Below are positions 2-56,925 of a stretch of DNA of 57,027 nucleotides, in pieces. Under the pieces are notes generated by a model. It was given only the letters and a program-made list of their open reading frames with translations. It searched no databases and had not been told where the DNA came from. Positions within the stretch are counted from its first letter, which is position 1; each line of letters begins with the position of its first letter. The stretch lies in sequence record DRR723986_6202; one strand, 5' to 3'. A program made the translations under genes and the position numbers.

Positions 2-50
2 CTCTCCGATCCCGGCTCGCGCTTCGCTTGGCCGGGATGACAATGGAGAG
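2..50. repeat. REP-like palindromic intergenic element (probably truncated by the window edge)
   Basis: ATCCCGGC(9-16)...GCCGGGAT(31-38) hairpin with outer arms CTCTCC(2-7)/GGAGAG(45-50). The minus strand reads GTCATCCCGGCCAAGCGAAGCGCGAGCCGGGATC, resembling short alphaproteobacterial interspersed repeats. Confidence 0.6.
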
Positions 51-63
51 GAGATCGTGAGTC

Positions 64-97
64 GGGGCAGCGGGTGTCAGCCGGCTGCCCCTTTTTG
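64..97 (+). terminator. Rho-independent terminator
   Basis: GGGGCAGC(64-71)/GCTGCCCC(84-91) stem followed by T6. Confidence 0.75.
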
Positions 98-134
98 ATC
101 GCAGATCGTGATCTTTTGATCTCGTCACATCCGC

Positions 135-1628
135 TTATGCCAATGACCGGACCTCTTGTTCCTCAGCCCGAAACGAGCCTGCCCTTGCGCCCGTGATTAC
201 CTGCAGCATCGGGGCAAGTTCCGGGTGGCGAAACCTGAAACCTGCGGCGACCAGTTTCGCCGGCACCACACGCTGGCCAGCCAGCATCGTCTCCCGGCCC
301 ATGTCGCCGAGCGCCGTCGACAACAACCAGGAAGGCAGGCGCAAGAATGCGGGGCGGTGAAGCGCCTTGGCCAGAGCCCTCGTGAATTCCGCATTTCGAA
401 CCGGCACGGGTGCCGTAGCATTGACGGGTCCGGCCAAATTTTCATCGGCCACCGTGCGGGCAATGATGCGGATAAGATCGTCCCGCTCGATCCAGGACAT
501 CCACTGGCGGCCAGAGCCCATCGCCCCGCCGCCACCGAATTCAAACGGCGTCAGCAGCTTTGCCAGAATGCCACCCTCGATACCGAGAACGAGACCGATC
601 CGCAAAAGCACGACACGCACTCCGTCCCGCTCCAGCTTTTGGGCCGCCTGTTCCCAGCGCTCGCAGACTTCGTGGACGAAGGCAGGTTCGAGGTTTGCGT
701 CTTCGGTCAGGGTTTCATCACCGCGCAGACCGTACCAGCCGATGGCGGAGCCGTTGATCAGGCAAGCCGGTTTGTTGTCAAGACGACCCACCAGTGCCTG
801 CAATGCTTCGGTCATTTGAACACGGGAGCCGATGATCCGGTCGCGTTTGCGGCTCGTCCACAAGCCACTCGCGATCGGGTCTCCTGCCAGGTTGACGATG
901 GCATCGAAGCGCTCGGCATTGTGGATCCGGTCAAGACTTGTGATCACACGGACAGGGTGTTCCAGGTCATCCGCCTTGCGCAGGTCTCGCGTGAGGACCG
1001 TGACGAAATGGCCGCCTCTCACCAGCGCTTCCACCAGTCGCCGACCTATGAACCCGGTGCCGCCCGTCACAAGGATATGCCGGCGCGGTGGCAGGGCTGC
1101 AACCAGTCCCGCCGGATCTGGACCACCAAGCCTGTCGCTGCGCGCGGCCGCAAGCAGATCCCGCGCGCTGAAGAGCCCGACACCAAGCGCCGAAACCGTG
1201 GACAGCACACTCCACCAGCCGTAGCTGACGGGCACCAGCGCGCTGGGGAGAAACGACCATTGCCACAGAACCGGTGCGGCCAGGACCAGGATCGCACCAT
1301 AGTTCAAGGCCAGCAGCGTGTGGTTGATCCTCTCGGTCCATGGCAGCTTTCGGGTCATGTCTTCCTCGACAAAATCCCAAAGCGTGATCAGCACCTCGGC
1401 GACAAGGATTGCCGTCAACAGCATGGTGAAGACCCCATGCGGTTCCAGCCAGCCGAAGCAGAGGAAGATCACCGCGTAGAAGAAATTTCGCACACCGTGC
1501 AGCCGCAGTTCGGTTTTCTGCGACGGACGCCAAGCCAGGCGCTCGCTGCCTTCATGGTGCACGAGCGTATCGAATGCGCCCATGAATATCTGGATGGAGA
1601 TCAACGTCCAGAGAACGGGATTATCCAT
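135..1628 (-). CDS. TIGR01777-family (YfcH/SDR39U1-like) NAD(P)-binding oxidoreductase fused to an N-terminal multi-pass membrane domain
   Basis: ILVTGGTGFIG, VNLAGDPI, SAIGWYG, LRIGLVLG and GSGRQWMSWI motifs. About 165 N-terminal residues with ~5 hydrophobic helices. ATG 1628 with GGAGA RBS just after the upstream stop. Confidence 0.9.
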   Translation of the reverse strand: MDNPVLWTLISIQIFMGAFDTLVHHEGSERLAWRPSQKTELRLHGVRNFFYAVIFLCFGWLEPHGVFTMLLTAILVAEVLITLWDFVEEDMTRKLPWTERINHTLLALNYGAILVLAAPVLWQWSFLPSALVPVSYGWWSVLSTVSALGVGLFSARDLLAAARSDRLGGPDPAGLVAALPPRRHILVTGGTGFIGRRLVEALVRGGHFVTVLTRDLRKADDLEHPVRVITSLDRIHNAERFDAIVNLAGDPIASGLWTSRKRDRIIGSRVQMTEALQALVGRLDNKPACLINGSAIGWYGLRGDETLTEDANLEPAFVHEVCERWEQAAQKLERDGVRVVLLRIGLVLGIEGGILAKLLTPFEFGGGGAMGSGRQWMSWIERDDLIRIIARTVADENLAGPVNATAPVPVRNAEFTRALAKALHRPAFLRLPSWLLSTALGDMGRETMLAGQRVVPAKLVAAGFRFRHPELAPMLQVITGARAGSFRAEEQEVRSLA

Positions 1629-40719: not shown

Positions 40720-41226
40720 TCAACGAATGAGGTCGAACCAATAAGTAGAGGAATAGACCTGAAGACCGGCAATCGCGATTGCGATGCCATAGGGGATGCC
40801 GCTTTTGCTGTCATGCAGACGAGCGAACCATTCCTGGCGATAGAGCACGGACGGCACCACCGCATTCTGCCGTAAGGCCAAAAGCCCCAGCGTCAGGAAC
40901 ATGCCGTAGACAGCAACAAAGAGAACGAACATCAGCAGTTCTTGCGAAAAACCAATCCAGAGCGCGATGGCACTGATGAACTTGACATCGCCTCCGCCCA
41001 TCCATCCGAAGGCGAAGAACAGGAAACAGGGGGCAAAAACGACCGCAAAGGCGAGTGCATGCATTCCCCAGGCTTGCAACGGCAAGCCTGTCGCGACTGC
41101 CAGGATGGCAAACCCTGCGATCAGCAGCAGGGAAACCCGGTTCTGGATAGTCATTGTCAGCAGATCGGATGCGCCGCCAAAGGCGACCAGCATCGGAAAA
41201 ATGACAAGAATTGCGGCCTCTATCAT
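40720..41226 (-). CDS. cpaA: Prepilin peptidase CpaA/TadV (A24)
   Basis: SDLLTMTIQN, MGGGDVK, IPYGIAI; both catalytic Asp present. Confidence 0.92.
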   Translation of the reverse strand: MIEAAILVIFPMLVAFGGASDLLTMTIQNRVSLLLIAGFAILAVATGLPLQAWGMHALAFAVVFAPCFLFFAFGWMGGGDVKFISAIALWIGFSQELLMFVLFVAVYGMFLTLGLLALRQNAVVPSVLYRQEWFARLHDSKSGIPYGIAIAIAGLQVYSSTYWFDLIR

Positions 41227-41307
41227 TGGACCCTCAATCAAACTCAAACACAGAGCATTTCATTACCAGTAGAGAGTTAACACTTCGCAGCTAACTGACT
41301 AAAAACG

Positions 41308-41335
41308 AAAAAACGGGCAGTAAACTGCCCGTTTT
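41308..41335 (-). terminator. Terminator after the pilin gene
   Basis: AAAACGGGCAG-taaa-CTGCCCGTTTT, with T6 tail on the minus strand. Confidence 0.8.
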
Positions 41336-41379
41336 CTCATTCAGGTCATCAACCTGGCGAATTGCTTAAGCGCGTTAGA

Positions 41380-41559
41380 TTAGCTGCCAGCAGCAGAAGT
41401 CAGGCGCGTCTGAATGTTGGTGAACACCGCAGTCAACGAAGTACCGGTTGCAGCGAGTGCACCGATGATGACGATGGACAGCAGGCCAGCGATGAGGCCG
41501 TATTCGATTGCAGTTGCGCCAGATTCGTCTTTTACGAAACGGTTGATAAGAGATTTCAT
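41380..41559 (-). CDS. flp: Flp/PilA type IVc pilin
   Basis: MKSLINRFVKDESG|ATAIEYGLIA Flp motif; GGAG RBS; 59 aa. Confidence 0.95.
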   Translation of the reverse strand: MKSLINRFVKDESGATAIEYGLIAGLLSIVIIGALAATGTSLTAVFTNIQTRLTSAAGS

Positions 41560-50442: not shown

Positions 50443-51942
50443 TCAGAGCGTCTGGTTGTAGTCGCCCACTTCCGAGTTTTCGCGCAGAACGCCGTCGACA
50501 GCCTTGAACATGGCGTGGAGCCGGTCTTCCGAAACCGGGCTCTCGACCACGACCACCAGCTCCGGCTTGTTGGAGGAGGCACGCACAAGACCCCAGGTTC
50601 CGTCTTCACTGACGACGCGAACGCCGTTGACGGTGATCAGGTCGGTGATCGACTGTCCGGCAACCGTTTCGCCCTTGGCTTTCATATCCTGGAAACGGGC
50701 GACAACCCGGTCGACGACGTCGTACTTGATTTCGTCGTCGCACTTGGGAGCCATGGTTGGCGACCCCCAGGTCTTGGGAAGATCCCGGCGCAGGTCTGCC
50801 ATCGTCTTGTCCGGGTTACGATCAAGCATGTCGAGGATGGCAATGGCCGAAACGAGCCCGTCATCATAACCGCGGCCAATCGGCTTGTTGAAGAAATAGT
50901 GGCCGGATTTCTCGAACCCGACCATGGCATTCAGTTCGGTGACACGGCGCTTGATATAGGAGTGACCGGTCTTGAAATAGTCGGTCTTGGCGCCGTTGGC
51001 CTTCAGCACCGGATCCGTGTGGAACAGGCCGGTGGATTTCACATCGACCACGAACTGGGCACCGGGATGAAGCGCGGAGATATCGCGCGCAAGCATCACG
51101 CCGACCTTGTCGGCGAAGATTTCCTCGCCTTCGTTGTCGACGACACCGCAGCGATCGCCGTCGCCATCGAAACCCAGTCCGACTTCCGCACCGACTTCCA
51201 GAACCTTGTCACGAAGCGCGTGGAGCATCTTCATGTCTTCCGGGTTCGGGTTATAGCGCGGGAAGGTGTGATCCAGCTCGGCATCAAGCGGAATGACTTC
51301 GGCGCCGATCGCCTCCAGGATCTTCGGCGCGAAGGCGCCGGCAGTGCCGTTGCCGCATGCCGCGACCACCTTAATCGGGCGCTTCAGCTTGGCCCGGTCG
51401 GTGAGATCCTTGAAATAGACATCCGGGAAACCGTCGACGAAGCGGTAGCTGCCGCCGCCCTTCAGGTCGAAGGCCGCTTCCAGAACGATGTCCTTCAGCC
51501 GGCCCATTTCATCGGGACCAAAGGTCAGCGGGCGGTCGATACCCATCTTGACGCCGGTCCAGCCGTTGTCGTTGTGCGACGCCGTGATCATGGCGACCGC
51601 CGGAACATCGAGCGCGAACTGTGCGAAATAGGCCATTGGTGACAAGGCCAGGCCAATGTCGTGCACGTTGATGCCGGCTGCCAGAAGGCCGTTGATCACC
51701 GCCATCTTGATGGAGGAGGAATAACCCCGGAAATCATGCCCCACCACGATGTCCGGGCGCACGCCACGTTCGTGAATGAGCGTGCCGATGCCCATACCGA
51801 GCGCCTGCATGCCCATCAGATTGATTTCCTTTTCGAAAAGCCAACGCGCATCGTATTCGCGGAAACCCGTGGGCTTCACCATTGGAAAGGATTCATATTC
51901 AAAAGTGTTCGGAACCAATTTCGGACGCGGTTTCGGAAACAT
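50443..51942 (-). CDS. Phosphomannomutase/phosphoglucomutase
   Basis: FREYDAR, TASHN, FDGDGDR, FEKSGH, VRASS. Confidence 0.94.
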   Translation of the reverse strand: MFPKPRPKLVPNTFEYESFPMVKPTGFREYDARWLFEKEINLMGMQALGMGIGTLIHERGVRPDIVVGHDFRGYSSSIKMAVINGLLAAGINVHDIGLALSPMAYFAQFALDVPAVAMITASHNDNGWTGVKMGIDRPLTFGPDEMGRLKDIVLEAAFDLKGGGSYRFVDGFPDVYFKDLTDRAKLKRPIKVVAACGNGTAGAFAPKILEAIGAEVIPLDAELDHTFPRYNPNPEDMKMLHALRDKVLEVGAEVGLGFDGDGDRCGVVDNEGEEIFADKVGVMLARDISALHPGAQFVVDVKSTGLFHTDPVLKANGAKTDYFKTGHSYIKRRVTELNAMVGFEKSGHYFFNKPIGRGYDDGLVSAIAILDMLDRNPDKTMADLRRDLPKTWGSPTMAPKCDDEIKYDVVDRVVARFQDMKAKGETVAGQSITDLITVNGVRVVSEDGTWGLVRASSNKPELVVVVESPVSEDRLHAMFKAVDGVLRENSEVGDYNQTL

Positions 51943-52006
51943 CAATGCCTCTCAAAGCAAGGAAGAAGAACGGAACTGGGTAATTACCTAAACACGGTAT
52001 GACAAT

Positions 52007-52513
52007 TCACTGCACCAGTACAAGCGTGCCATCGGAGATGTCAAACCGCTTCATTTGGTTGAGAACGGACATGCCGAGCAGGGGTTCCCCGAGGCTTTGA
52101 TCTTTCAACACAAGTGTGTCGACATTGCGTAGCCGGATCTTTCCAATGCGCAAATTGTCAATGGTCGCCCTGGCGCCACGAACTGTGCCATTTGCCGTCT
52201 GGATCGCGTACTTGTAGTCGGCCGAATTCAGGAAGATTCCGATGCTCTCGGCAAGCGATTCCGGCAAAACGGTGACGGTTGCACCGGTGTCGACCAGCAT
52301 GTCCACCGCACGGCCGTTCAGATAGGCATCTGCCACGAAATGCCCCTGCCTGTTGGCCGATATTCGGTGGCTTCGTTCACCGGCCTCGTCCACGTCCTGA
52401 TCTTCGGCAACCGGGTCGCTGCTCACCAGCACTTCAAGCCTGTTTTCCAGCAGATACGCCGCAAGCGGGACGATTGCCATGCAGGCCAGAAAGATGATGA
52501 CAAAGCGCGACAT
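52007..52513 (-). CDS. TIGR02281-family clan AA aspartic protease
   Basis: N-terminal TM; GHF, LVDTGAT, TANG, LLGMS. Confidence 0.9.
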   Translation of the reverse strand: MSRFVIIFLACMAIVPLAAYLLENRLEVLVSSDPVAEDQDVDEAGERSHRISANRQGHFVADAYLNGRAVDMLVDTGATVTVLPESLAESIGIFLNSADYKYAIQTANGTVRGARATIDNLRIGKIRLRNVDTLVLKDQSLGEPLLGMSVLNQMKRFDISDGTLVLVQ

Positions 52514-52579: not shown

Positions 52580-53479
52580 TCAGGCAATCGTGTCGGCCAG
52601 CCGGGCAATATCCTCCAGATGCGGTGCACTGGACTGGGCCCCTGTCACGGTGCAGGCAAGCGCACCGGCGGCGGCACCTTCCTTCAAGGCACGTTCGAAG
52701 GACGTCTTGCGATCGAGAGCGGCAGCCAGAGCGCCGCAAAAGGCATCGCCCGCACCGGTCGTATCCACCGCGTTGACGGCAGGAGAAGCGAAGCGATAGC
52801 GCGCGGTTGGCGTGCGTGCGAGAACACCGTCTGCACCAAGGGTGACGATGACGTTCCGGCCACCTTCCGCCAGCTTCAGCGCGAATGTTTCCGTGTCACC
52901 GGCAATGCCGAGACGACCTCCGATCTCTGCCGCCTCGCTCACATTGACCACAACCGTACCGGCAACATCCAGACAGGCACTCAGGTCGCCCTCAGGCACA
53001 GGAGCCGGGTTCCAGATGACCGTGCCTGCCGCATCCCGGGCAAGCCTGGCACCTTTGATCACCTCAAGCAGAGGCACCTCTCCCTGAACCAGCAGTGTCT
53101 GACCGGGCCCAAAACCGCCTTCCAGCCAGGAGGCTTCGACACGTGCATTGGTGCCGCTGGCGACGATAATCTGGTTTTCCCCTGCGGGATCGATGCCGAT
53201 CAGGGCAAGGCCGGTCGACCCGGCCATGGTGCGAACGCCCGAAAGATCGACGCCGGCTTCGCGCAGATTAAGCAGCGCGAGTTCGGCAAAGCTGTCCTGT
53301 CCGACCGCGCCGATGAAACGAACGTCGGCCCCTGCCCGCCTGGCAGCCAGCGCCTGGTTGGCGCCTTTCCCACCTGGAAATGTCTGGTGATCGCGACCGC
53401 TCACCGTTTCGCCGGCAGTCGGCAAGCGGGGCACGGCAACGACCAGATCCAGATTGATGGAACCAAAGACCGTAATCAT
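52580..53479 (-). CDS. rbsK: Ribokinase (PfkB family)
   Basis: GSINLD, PGGKGANQA, GENQI, NPAP, DTTGAGDAF. Confidence 0.88.
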   Translation of the reverse strand: MITVFGSINLDLVVAVPRLPTAGETVSGRDHQTFPGGKGANQALAARRAGADVRFIGAVGQDSFAELALLNLREAGVDLSGVRTMAGSTGLALIGIDPAGENQIIVASGTNARVEASWLEGGFGPGQTLLVQGEVPLLEVIKGARLARDAAGTVIWNPAPVPEGDLSACLDVAGTVVVNVSEAAEIGGRLGIAGDTETFALKLAEGGRNVIVTLGADGVLARTPTARYRFASPAVNAVDTTGAGDAFCGALAAALDRKTSFERALKEGAAAGALACTVTGAQSSAPHLEDIARLADTIA

Positions 53480-53584: not shown

Positions 53585-54214
53585 TTACTTCGTGCCGTAC
53601 ATACGGTCGCCGGCATCGCCAAGACCCGGGACGATATAGCCCTTCTCGTTCAGCTTCTCGTCGATGGAAGCAGTGTAGACCGGTACGTCCGGGTGGTTCT
53701 CCGTGAAATTCTTGACGCCCTCAGGTGCTGCGAGCAGGCAGAGGAAGCGGATGTTGTTGGCTCCGCGCTCCTTGAGCTTCTGAACTGCTGCAATCGCCGA
53801 GTTGGCGGTAGCCAGCATCGGATCGACCACGATCACCAGACGCTCGTTCAGGTCTTCCGGAGCCTTGAAGTAATACTCCACCGGCTGCAGCGTCTGCGGA
53901 TCGCGGTAAAGCCCGATGTGCGCCACGCGCGCCGACGGAACCAGATCCAGCATGCCTTCCAGAAGTCCGTTGCCCGCACGCAGAACGGAAGCGAATACCA
54001 GCTTCTTGCCGGCCAGGGTCGGCGCCTGCATTTCGGCAAGCGGCGTCTCGATGGTCTGGTAGACGAGCGGCAGGTCGCGGGTGACCTCATAGCAGAGCAG
54101 CGTGGAGATTTCCCGCAGCAAGCGCCGGAACCCCTGGGTGGACGTTCCCTTGTCGCGCATGATGCTCAGTTTGTGCTGAACCAGCGGGTGGCTGATGACA
54201 GTGGCTCCGGACAT
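53585..54214 (-). CDS. upp: Uracil phosphoribosyltransferase
   Basis: [39 protein letters not shown] 54214. Confidence 0.97.
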
Positions 54215-54279: not shown

Positions 54280-55521
54280 CTATGCCCCGAACGGCAACCA
54301 AAAAACAGACCCCGGGTTCATGAAGTGCCCGAGTTTTTTCGCTTCCTGCGGGTGTCCTTGCAAATAAATGCCGCCAGCCCGGCTGGTTCCACCTTCCAGG
54401 ATGCAGGTGAGCGGCAATTGATCCTGATGAACCTTGAGCTCGTGCCGCAGTAGTTCGGCCAGCCTGTCGGTGAGCGCAAGCGCCACAGCCCGGATTTCGA
54501 CCATCCGGTCGCGTTCGGCCTCTGCTGACAGCACCGTGTCCGGTTCAACAATTTTCAGGACACCGGCGTCGATAAACAGGGCCGCGTGGACAGGATCGGC
54601 CGGCGGCGTCAGTGCCTCCAGTCCGGAGACTTCAAACCCGGCCCAGGCAAGAGGTTCGATCAGTGAATAGACCATCTCCTGGGCAGCCAGATGGAACGGC
54701 ACAACAGTTCTCTCGGAAACCGCACCCCACTGGTAATGCTCGAAGCTGTCGCCATAAACCATGCTTCCTTCGCTGGCACCGCCGTCCCAGAGCGGACACA
54801 GGGACTCCAGCAACCGGTCGAGCAGATCCCTTGCCGAAACCACACCATCGCTTTCCTTTGCCATCCGAACTGCAAGACGGCCGGGACGGGTCTCGTCCCC
54901 TTCCCCGAAAAGGTCCGGCCGCAGGGCAAGCGCTTCACCGAAGCGTTTCAGATGGCGCTGCATCGCCTCGAGCAGGTCGTCATCTTCCCTTGCGTCCCAC
55001 TGCAGGCCTTCTGCGAGTTCCATCCGGTCCATCTGCACGAGCGTCTGCGCATCGACTCGGTAGGGATCGGTCATTTCACCGGAAAAGGAACCTGCCGCGA
55101 ACATGTGAAAGGCGGCCAGTGCCGAAGCCTCCTGACCGGTCGCCTTGGTGTCCGTCATCCTGTCCTCGAAAACCCAGCCCTCGGGGTGACGGGTTTTCAT
55201 GTAGGTACCCAGGATGGCAAGGTCGGCTGCAGCGGCAAGCATTTCTTCGGCGGTTTCAAACCCGCGCGCATTTGCCAGCGCACCCCAGCGGTCGATGCCG
55301 CCGGCCTCGTAATTCCGCCAGATGCCGTAGGGTGGAATGTGAAAATCCGGATAATTTTCCCGAGTTGTTTCAAGCACCTTGGCCAGGGCTGTTTCGAGCA
55401 GGTCCGGAACCGCTTCGACATGGGCGAGTTTGCCATCTGTGGCGAGCTTCAAAAGCTCATAGGCTTTTTCCCGAACATGTTGCGGCCGGAACAGGGACAA
55501 GGCTGGTTGGGTATCGGTCAT
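54280..55521 (-). CDS. Divergent DUF1688 (URC4/Urg3-like) protein
   Basis: Collinear blocks VRE...TRENYPD..IP, GGIDRW, FDL-like DLAI, RPG, PFH...YSLIEPL, VE.RA, ILEGGT, GSVF; sits directly upstream of upp; ATG 55521. Confidence 0.8.
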   Translation of the reverse strand: MTDTQPALSLFRPQHVREKAYELLKLATDGKLAHVEAVPDLLETALAKVLETTRENYPDFHIPPYGIWRNYEAGGIDRWGALANARGFETAEEMLAAAADLAILGTYMKTRHPEGWVFEDRMTDTKATGQEASALAAFHMFAAGSFSGEMTDPYRVDAQTLVQMDRMELAEGLQWDAREDDDLLEAMQRHLKRFGEALALRPDLFGEGDETRPGRLAVRMAKESDGVVSARDLLDRLLESLCPLWDGGASEGSMVYGDSFEHYQWGAVSERTVVPFHLAAQEMVYSLIEPLAWAGFEVSGLEALTPPADPVHAALFIDAGVLKIVEPDTVLSAEAERDRMVEIRAVALALTDRLAELLRHELKVHQDQLPLTCILEGGTSRAGGIYLQGHPQEAKKLGHFMNPGSVFWLPFGA

Positions 55522-55567
55522 GGAGATCGCCGGATCTGGAAAGGATTGTGTGAAAAGACGCTGCCCT

Positions 55568-55596
55568 CGCCTATCTGCCCACCATAACCTTGTCAA
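55568..55596 (-). promoter_or_regulatory. Sigma70-like promoter for the DUF1688 gene
   Basis: TTGACA-N17-TAGGCG on the minus strand. Confidence 0.5.
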
Positions 55597-55668
55597 ACCG
55601 GTTCGTCATTGGTCATCATCTGTTTGATTTGAACCCAAGCCTTTCAACCACCCCACACCGGAAGTTTC

Positions 55669-56925
55669 ATGTCTGCCGTTGTCTCAATCGCCGCCCTTCT
55701 CGTCGGATCTGGACTGCTTTTGCTCGCCGGCGGCCTTCACGGCCTCCTGTTGCCGCTCGCCGGTCTCGCCAACGGCTTTTCCGATGCCTCGCTCGGTCTG
55801 CTCGGCACCGGCTGGGCAGTCGGATATGTCAGCGGCTGTCTGGCCGTGCCGGTCATCGTGAAGCGTGTGGGCCATGTGCGGGCCTTCGGTGCGCTTGCCT
55901 CGCTGGCGGGCATCTCGGTTCTCCTGAACCTCCTGTTCATGGATGCCGCTGTCTGGATCGTGTTGCGGGCAATCACCGGCTTCTGCTTTTCCGGCGCTGC
56001 CATGATCGTGGAAAGCTGGCTGAACGAACGTTCGACCAGCGAAACGCGCGGGCGGATCTTCGGCATCTACACGATGATCAACCTGGGGGCGACGACCGCC
56101 GGACAGATGTTGCTGACGCTTGGCGATCCGACCGGCTTCTTCTTCTTCGTTCTCGGTTCGATCATCTACTCGCTATCACTGCTGCCGACAGCGCTGTCCA
56201 CCGCCGCATCGCCCCAGCCCCTGACACAGGCGCGGCTGGACCCGAAAAAACTCTGGCGCAATTCACCGATCGCAGTCGTAGCGGTTTTCATGGTCGGCAT
56301 TTCAAACGGGTCCTTCGGCACCTTGGGTGCGGTTTATGGACTTCGCATCGGACTGGACGTACCGGAGATTGCCATCATGATGAGTTTGGCGCTTTTGGCC
56401 GGCGCAGTGGTGCAGATCCCGGTCGGCATGCTGTCCGACAGGCTCGACCGGCGCCTCGTGCTGGTCGGTCTCGCCGTAACCGCCATGAGTTTCGGGTCCA
56501 GCCTGTCGTTCTTCGGCGGCACCGATCCGACCCTCACGGTTCTTCTGATCGCAGGTTTCGGCGGCGTGGTCTATTCCATGTATCCGGTGATAGTCGCCCA
56601 CGCGAGCGACCACGCAGAGCCGGGTGACTTTCTCAGGATTAGCGGCGGTCTTCTGCTTATCTTCGGGGCTGGTACAATGCTTGGACCGTTGCTCGCCTCG
56701 GGCTTGATGACCTTCACTTATCCGGGCGCACTCTTCCAGGTGACGGCGGCAGCGCATCTTTCCATGATGCTCTTTGCCCTCTGGCGCATGCGTCAGCGTG
56801 CTTCGCTGCCACAGGAAGACAAGTCCGATTTCGTGATGGCAGTCTCGACCGCGCAGATTACGACCCCGGAAACGGTAAGCCTCGATCCGCGCACGGAAGT
56901 GGACGAGACCGGCGGGGAAATCTGA
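55669..56925 (+). CDS. MFS transporter (YcaD-like)
   Basis: 12 TMs; RVGHVRAF, IVESWLN, RGRIFGIY, GMLSDRLDRR. Confidence 0.9.
   Translation: MSAVVSIAALLVGSGLLLLAGGLHGLLLPLAGLANGFSDASLGLLGTGWAVGYVSGCLAVPVIVKRVGHVRAFGALASLAGISVLLNLLFMDAAVWIVLRAITGFCFSGAAMIVESWLNERSTSETRGRIFGIYTMINLGATTAGQMLLTLGDPTGFFFFVLGSIIYSLSLLPTALSTAASPQPLTQARLDPKKLWRNSPIAVVAVFMVGISNGSFGTLGAVYGLRIGLDVPEIAIMMSLALLAGAVVQIPVGMLSDRLDRRLVLVGLAVTAMSFGSSLSFFGGTDPTLTVLLIAGFGGVVYSMYPVIVAHASDHAEPGDFLRISGGLLLIFGAGTMLGPLLASGLMTFTYPGALFQVTAAAHLSMMLFALWRMRQRASLPQEDKSDFVMAVSTAQITTPETVSLDPRTEVDETGGEI

Follow-up and report, generated by a model that had tools for sequence, protein, structure and literature searches.

The gene described here, urc4* (P0001), occupies positions 54280..55521 on the minus strand of a 57,027-nucleotide stretch of DNA from record DRR723986_6202, which we refer to as the window. 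It encodes a 413-aa DUF1688/URC4 orthologue whose predicted active site has been dismantled, as judged from PF07958, sequence alignment, and a structural model. The frame is intact when counted from the ATG at 55521, which agrees with the description of a 413-aa ORF free of frameshifts and stops in an earlier reading of the sequence (hereafter the original prediction). Downstream on the same strand lie upp (53585..54214; PF14681, with TIGR01091 and NF001097 over cut-off), encoding the uracil phosphoribosyltransferase equivalent to URC6; a PfkB-family, ribokinase-like kinase gene (52580..53479; PF00294, with TIGR02152 as the best NCBIfam match, below cut-off); and two neighbors conserved by synteny, a retropepsin-like aspartyl protease gene (52007..52513; PF13975) and a phosphoglucomutase/phosphomannomutase gene (50443..51945; PF02878-80). 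The upp start is most likely 54214, preceded by a GAGAGG site and 65 bases past the urc4* stop. On the plus strand, a divergent MFS transporter gene (55669..56925; PF07690, synteny) occupies the spot held in relatives by urc1 or adenosine deaminase. The closest named relatives of the protein are from Roseibium and Labrenzia, and on that basis we treat the genus of this sequence, g1, as Roseibium. The protein has a net charge of -28 and a pI of 4.8, more acidic than canonical copies. No NCBIfam model matched it, a protein atlas search returned DUF1688 clusters only, and a plasmid search returned 13 records, with 32-36% identity among the 10 matches listed. A sequencing artefact can be eliminated as the source of the altered motifs described below, since identical motifs occur in the nearest genome, G001, and in dozens of relatives. 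Elsewhere in the window, at 41219-41406, a segment is strain-variable: high-depth contigs from three RNA runs of a close relative have 194 different bases where the window has 186.

Ahead of urc4*, on the minus strand, the proposed promoter TTGACA-N17-TAGGCG is present (55568..55596; -35 box at 55596-55591, -10 box at 55573-55568) and is promoter-like by its sequence. The missing final T of the -10 box explains why a consensus scanner did not list it. Of the 14 core-clade loci compared, 13 share the -35 box and its flanking bases ahead of the gene, and G061 also has it; the box was not seen in seven basal or other-genus loci. The leader (55522-55567) is pyrimidine-rich, with no clear Shine-Dalgarno site. 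The -35 box overlaps a plus-strand promoter-like site of the divergent MFS gene (55590-55619), in a conserved AACCGGTT palindrome. RNA-library contigs of close relatives cover urc4* in four runs from four studies and in three runs from one study; in the latter, contigs stop at 55598-55610, near the promoter, and one covers both upp and urc4*. These contigs carry neither strand nor level, their coverage spans the whole 20 kb, and DNA carry-over is possible.

The protein gives a clear match to the PF07958 (DUF1688) profile, as had been expected, with 213 bits against a cut-off of 25 (E 8.6e-63, profile positions 3-395 of 420), and profile-profile alignment of the urc4* clade with canonical URC4 reaches a probability of 100 over 410 columns. 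An alignment of 227 canonical proteins (107 single and 120 excised from longer chains) has 75 columns with at least 95% conservation, so the canonical motifs that the original prediction had named are real, and all seven substituted motifs that it listed are present in urc4* and collinear with their canonical counterparts in both alignments. In the core clade (n = 48), 33 of these 75 columns are kept, 11 are partly kept, and 31 are lost. The residues kept in urc4* are mostly structural. The accompanying claim, that the scaffold is kept while the polar residues are lost, stands for the scaffold and for the presumed catalytic set; it does not stand for D309, E342, R344, E376, and H277, which are retained. 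The core clade has 135 columns that are at least 95% conserved, some of them new (H312, C373, and W408). H312 is found in 67/67 genus proteins, and H277, C373, and E376 in 48/48 core proteins. The alignment also places a six-residue C-terminal extension (residues 408-413; 54283..54300, minus strand) past the terminal Phe of canonical URC4. That Phe ends 107/107 canonical single proteins, and the extension, with an invariant W408, is present in 67/67 genus proteins.

The predicted model of urc4* (pLDDT 92.9) matches the HhH-glycosylase fold of the queuine-salvage enzyme Qng1/DUF2419, its insertions included, with a Foldseek E of 4e-7 and a probability of 1.00; against 7ugk_A it gives Z 26.5 with an rmsd of 3.2 over 318 aligned residues, the next fold falling to Z 10.5. 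A canonical URC4 model gives Z 27.9 against Qng1. At the sequence level the likeness is faint. The urc4* protein has no match to PF10343 at E up to 1, a PDB search with the single sequence returned chance matches only, and a PDB search with a canonical URC4 profile returned no match. A mixed profile reaches Qng1 at a whole-protein E of 0.05, an HMM alignment backed by the fold match. Precomputed PF10343 matches exist in 12 of 120 long URC4 homologues among the matches listed (120 of 145), and a PF10343 search found 0/251 phylum genomes in a run in which no positive control gave signal.

The accessible text of PMC9881137 describes the Qng1 active site, with D231 as nucleophile, K199 orienting and Y232 stacking on the ribose, K233, R80, and Q306 as phosphate ligands, and W302 and D298 in contact with ribose and base. 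The site includes the C-terminal carboxylate, and a C-terminal His6 tag inactivates the enzyme (PMC9881137). In the HMM alignment, Qng1 K199, the HhH lysine, corresponds to the canonical Lys and to L278 of urc4* (54688..54690, minus strand), where it is lost, and Qng1 D231-Y232-K233 corresponds to canonical Glu-Tyr-Arg and to D309-P310-V311. D309 (54595..54597, minus strand; HMM alignment to 7u07/7uk3) thus occupies the position of the nucleophile. Mapped by spacing and collinearity only, D298, W302, and Q306 fall on E376 (kept), S380 (Trp lost), and G384. Canonical F413 aligns with Qng1 Y323 (7uk3 ranges 15..413 / 7..323), and in urc4* the six further residues are predicted to leave the active site without the terminal carboxylate. 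Taken together, these losses make it very probable that urc4* has lost the ancestral reaction, the cleavage of a ribosyl 5'-monophosphate. Former pocket columns are conserved at 0.67 in the core clade against 0.72 for the rest, where canonical URC4 shows 0.98 against 0.61; selection is not on the old pocket. Residue 309 is Asp in 56, Asn in 8, and Glu in 3 of the 67 genus proteins, and it directly precedes a predicted helix (310-319). Asp and Asn are favored helix caps. We read D309 as such a cap and not as a working nucleophile, which would explain both the repeated gain of Asp and the Asn swap in 8/67 proteins.

The same comparison bears on canonical URC4, which we infer to be a Qng1-type N-glycosidase that frees urea from a ribosyl-urea nucleotide, its substrate being the ring-opened uridine nucleotide that URC1 makes. 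This is in line with the role of URC4 in urea release from uracil in the URC pathway, as given in the accessible text of PMC7530994 and PMC3869809, and with URC1 being a UTP cyclohydrolase, as stated in a title cited in PMC12507026. We found no description of the chemistry of the URC4 step in the literature searched.

Searches located DUF1688 at a single locus in each genome that carries it, which means 103 of 132 genomes in the family and 68 of 72 in the genus. All of the family loci were fetched except that of G084, at a contig edge, leaving 102. A canonical URC4 paralogue, whose presence had been raised as a point to check, was not found in G001, and the single locus in each genome searched rules out a decayed duplicate of an active paralogue. 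URC1 (PF12471) occurs in only 7/132 family genomes and 1/72 genus genomes; no match was found in G001, in 71 of the 72 genus genomes, or near urc4* in the window. In six of the seven URC1 genomes, urc1 lies directly upstream of a fully canonical urc4, followed by upp. The seventh, G108 of the genus, has an eroded URC4 and a divergent URC1-like cyclohydrolase (L126:3883-5013, 42% identity) away from the upp locus, adjoining RibD-like and haem-oxygenase-like genes. The family locus has the order phosphopentomutase-like, adenosine deaminase, (urc1), urc4, upp, kinase, protease, phosphomutase, with urc1-urc4-upp in six family genomes and urc4-upp elsewhere at the same locus, within a deoA-deoB-add...upp-rbsK salvage cluster. 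Because the locus is conserved and urc1 is present in only some genomes, urc4* is the syntenic URC4 orthologue from a urc1-urc4-upp cluster, left after deletion of urc1.

The tie between URC4 and URC1 extends beyond the family. In an order sample of 351 genomes, 92 carry URC4 and 73 carry URC1, with URC4 alone in 19 and URC1 without URC4 in 0/73. Longer URC4 homologues are URC1-URC4 fusions in 118/120 and URC4-UPRTase fusions in 0/120 among the matches listed (120 of 145), which identifies URC1, not Upp, as the ancestral partner. Of the family genomes tested, 5/5 have an above-cut-off match to dihydropyrimidinase, an enzyme of the reductive route, and 0/5 to RutA; the former suggests that the reductive pyrimidine route made URC redundant.

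The loss of the pocket is graded. Of 14 pocket residues, all 14 are kept in 6/6 URC1-adjacent proteins, compared with 0-3 in the 67 genus proteins, although the sites were partly picked from those lost in the genus and this second count is therefore not independent. Genus g7 keeps 2-12 and genus g2 keeps 1-2, while g9 keeps 10-14 in 12 URC1-less proteins and 2 and 4 in two others. In a quick tree the proteins of g1 group together as a single clade with support 100, and in a upp tree each genus is one group with both eroded g9 genomes falling inside g9; their erosion is therefore separate from that of g1, g2, and g7. Lost columns overlap between lineages beyond chance (19-27 columns), with the same derived residue in only 2-8. 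The sole change common to 7/8 eroded lineages is Glu-to-Asp at 309, which is also seen in 4/10 orphans (URC4 without URC1) outside the family with the site covered.

The twelve near-canonical, URC1-less g9 copies (among L002-L019) are under strong selection, with a dN/dS of about 0.06, which suggests a URC1-independent catalytic role, for example in clearing damaged ring-opened pyrimidine nucleotides. Between G023 (L129), whose copy is near-canonical, and G019 (L022), the dS is 1.37 for URC4 and 0.17 for upp and MFS, and allele replacement by recombination is possible. The 19 orphans of the order sample comprise 8 in this family and 11 outside it, 7 of the latter in family f92. In these seven genomes (L135-L140 and L143: G502, G549, G569, G629, G648, G664, and G609), URC4 sits at the upp locus but is oriented away from upp. 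Six of the copies are complete, and in these the same pocket residues have eroded independently, either incipiently or to an advanced stage; in some, Lys is replaced by Gln or Arg, Glu by Asp or Cys, and Trp by Ala or Val. The four other orphans outside the family have essentially canonical motifs. URC4 with near-canonical motifs and no URC1 in the genome is found at L133:1-4256 (G437), L141:168-4209 (G627), and L142:1372-4279 (G659), where it is the last gene of a different operon, with a phosphotriesterase-family gene (confirmed in two of the three), a GATase1-like gene (PF07090), and a PfkB kinase gene. This operon is a candidate URC1-independent pathway in which the kinase would supply the 5'-phosphate substrate of the glycosidase.

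Selection was assessed as dN/dS by NG86. Among the five closest sequences, the values are 0.090 for urc4*, 0.088 for the kinase, and 0.023 for upp. We took 20 genus sister pairs and excluded two that were saturated (0.138 and 0.267); in the remaining 18 (dS under 1.3), urc4* ranges from 0.074 to 0.235 with a median of 0.122, and the ribokinase from 0.071 to 0.157 in the 12 of those pairs for which it was computable. Canonical or near-canonical URC4 pairs give 0.050-0.069 (the five computable pairs out of six, two of them with dS above 1.5). Constraint on urc4* is therefore relaxed about twofold relative to canonical URC4 and is still strong. A single open frame is found in 98 of the 102 fetched copies and in 66 of the 67 from the genus, and three of the four split copies have lost one base in a short run, as is common in assembly errors. 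The value across orthologues, about 0.12 and not near 1, indicates purifying selection, and together with the intact copies across the genus it sustains the original view that this is not simple decay. The original prediction as a whole had been made to depend on a DUF1688 match, motifs invariant in active family members, low dN/dS, and few disruptions, all four of which are now in evidence. Four genus genomes have no match. G106 and G095 also have no upp, so the region is probably unassembled there; G096 is 61% complete; and G110, a complete genome, has upp and no urc4 gene. The gene is also absent from all genomes of 5/10 genera. Selection maintains the scaffold but not the nucleotide pocket, the pattern that characterizes a pseudoenzyme. 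We conclude that urc4* is a real, genus-wide, selected, pseudoenzyme-like variant of URC4.

As to what it now does, the reading that we tentatively prefer, at somewhat less than even odds, is that urc4* is a non-catalytic pseudoenzyme and most plausibly a protein partner of Upp or of another enzyme of the salvage cluster. We infer that the loss of URC1 triggered the erosion. Deletion of urc1 would have taken away the substrate of URC4, after which the ribose- and phosphate-binding residues could have drifted, and the six-residue extension would displace the terminal carboxylate, much like the His6 tag that inactivates Qng1. Upp is the first candidate partner because the gene lies directly upstream of upp, as the original prediction had noted for this locus, both here and in 57/67 fetched genus genomes. 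Gene order, the one argument for this step, points to Upp only weakly, because no Upp fusion occurs among the longer homologues listed, another gene can come to lie between urc4 and upp, and G110 and five other genera do without urc4. About 1.5 kb separates gene and upp in 8/67 genus genomes, and about 5 kb in G050. A DUF2306 membrane-protein gene lies between the URC4 homologue and upp at L144:4989-5972 (G080) and L145:3627-4604 (G102), and six more genomes of this subclade have a gap of equal size before upp. Co-folding of the urc4* protein with two Upp chains scored 0.00 in two runs made without alignments or folded controls, a score that speaks neither for nor against a complex. A broader proposal is that URC4 had a second, non-catalytic salvage function that outlived URC, giving parallel pseudoenzymes in alphaproteobacteria and, in Roseibium, a regulator of Upp whose C-terminal plug closes the old site; we consider this unlikely.

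The partner reading has to contend with a set of residues that could be a remodelled active site, and with a dN/dS about twice that of canonical or near-canonical copies. Residue 309 is acidic in 48/48 core and 59/67 genus proteins, and its change to Asp, shared by 7/8 eroded lineages and 4/10 outside orphans, arrives at the state found in Qng1. D309 might accordingly act as a Qng1-style nucleophile, together with the invariant H312, H277, E376, and C373, in a new or residual small-molecule activity that uses the base-binding half of the pocket and acts on or binds a compound lacking ribose phosphate, for example a ureide or a free base. We regard this, the main rival, as possible, although on balance improbable. 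Asn stands at 309 in 8/67 proteins, and Qng1 D231N was crystallised with intact substrate, according to the title of entry 7ulc. The position of D309 directly before a predicted helix is one where Asp and Asn are favored as caps, the equivalents of K199, Y232, K233, and the carboxylate are gone, and the pocket columns vary freely.

The graded course of the erosion, which recurs wherever URC1 is gone and strikes the same columns with mostly different residues, is what would be expected of a slowly decaying vestige. As the first gene of the upp transcription unit, urc4* might persist because nonsense mutations would be polar and misfolding costly, with the fold alone under selection. The largely structural nature of the kept residues, the whole genera and G110 without the gene, frameshifts in 4/102 fetched copies, a GC3 of 0.66 compared with 0.79 for upp, and the redundancy of URC where dihydropyrimidinase is present all fit such a course. 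We nonetheless doubt it. A dN/dS of about 0.12, equal to that of the ribokinase, has been held across a genus so deep that its ends share only 35-40% identity, 66/67 genus copies are a single open frame, and three of the four splits resemble assembly errors. Clean deletion is possible, as in G110, yet rare, and new invariant features, the C-terminal extension among them, arose on the genus stem. Polarity is also no explanation in the seven URC1-less f92 genomes, which keep the gene pointing away from upp.

A non-catalytic nucleotide-binding sensor, a role that the original prediction had offered, is weakened by these data to the point of being very improbable. The fold is that of a nucleotide 5'-monophosphate-binding enzyme, the gene adjoins upp, and His-tag-inactivated Qng1 still binds Q-5'MP (accessible text of PMC9881137); however, the equivalents of the phosphate ligands (P310 and V311 for Y232 and K233 by alignment, G384 for Q306 by spacing) and of the ribose ligands (L278 for K199, S380 for W302 by spacing) are precisely what has been lost, and these positions are now free to vary. 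The net charge of -28 and pI of 4.8 likewise speak against nucleotide binding, and the charge makes a DNA-binding, Mag2-like role unlikely. The preferred reading remains a retained, non-catalytic scaffold with a protein partner.

These findings support the notion that urc4* became a pseudoenzyme through loss of a partner and with no gene duplication, a clean natural example that comes with graded intermediates and with parallel lineages to study. Wherever URC1 is gone, the residues lost from URC4 trace out its active site and coincide with the catalytic set of Qng1, and C-terminal tags would likely inactivate URC4. A practical consequence concerns annotation: with the database label DUF1688/URC4 on urc4*, metabolic reconstructions of Roseibium could wrongly infer a partial URC pathway. 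We found no literature on a disarmed URC4 clade or on a URC4-Qng1 link in a literature search covering few subscription journals.

The URC cluster and Qng1 themselves are already known. With URC4/urg3 (PF07958; URC4 of Lachancea kluyveri, urg3 of S. pombe, and the bacterial urc1-urc4-upp clusters), urc4* shares the Pfam match, full length, predicted fold, the place directly upstream of upp, and 33/75 invariant URC4 columns. It differs from URC4 in having no URC1, in having lost 31/75 columns, including the Lys, Tyr-Arg, Trp, and Asp-Ala-Gly motifs, in the change of Glu to Asp, and in the six extra residues past the terminal Phe. With Qng1/QNG1 (DUF2419, a queuosine-5'-monophosphate N-glycosidase of HhH-glycosylase fold; 7U07, 7UK3, and 7UGK), it shares the predicted fold (Z 25.5-26.5), an Asp at the D231 position, and E342 at the E267 position. 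Unlike Qng1, it has no PF10343 match, has lost the equivalents of K199, Y232, and K233, and has a displaced terminal carboxylate; identity is 15-20%. No link between urc4* and queuosine genes was seen in the loci examined. S. pombe Mag2 has an active paralogue and is not known to be catalytic itself. This glycosylase-like HhH protein, which binds damaged DNA according to the titles of entries 4HSB and 4B23, shows that a member of this fold superfamily can be retained although it is apparently non-catalytic. In contrast to Mag2, the strongly acidic urc4* protein is a member of the nucleotide-hydrolase branch, and the nearest genome carries no paralogue of it.
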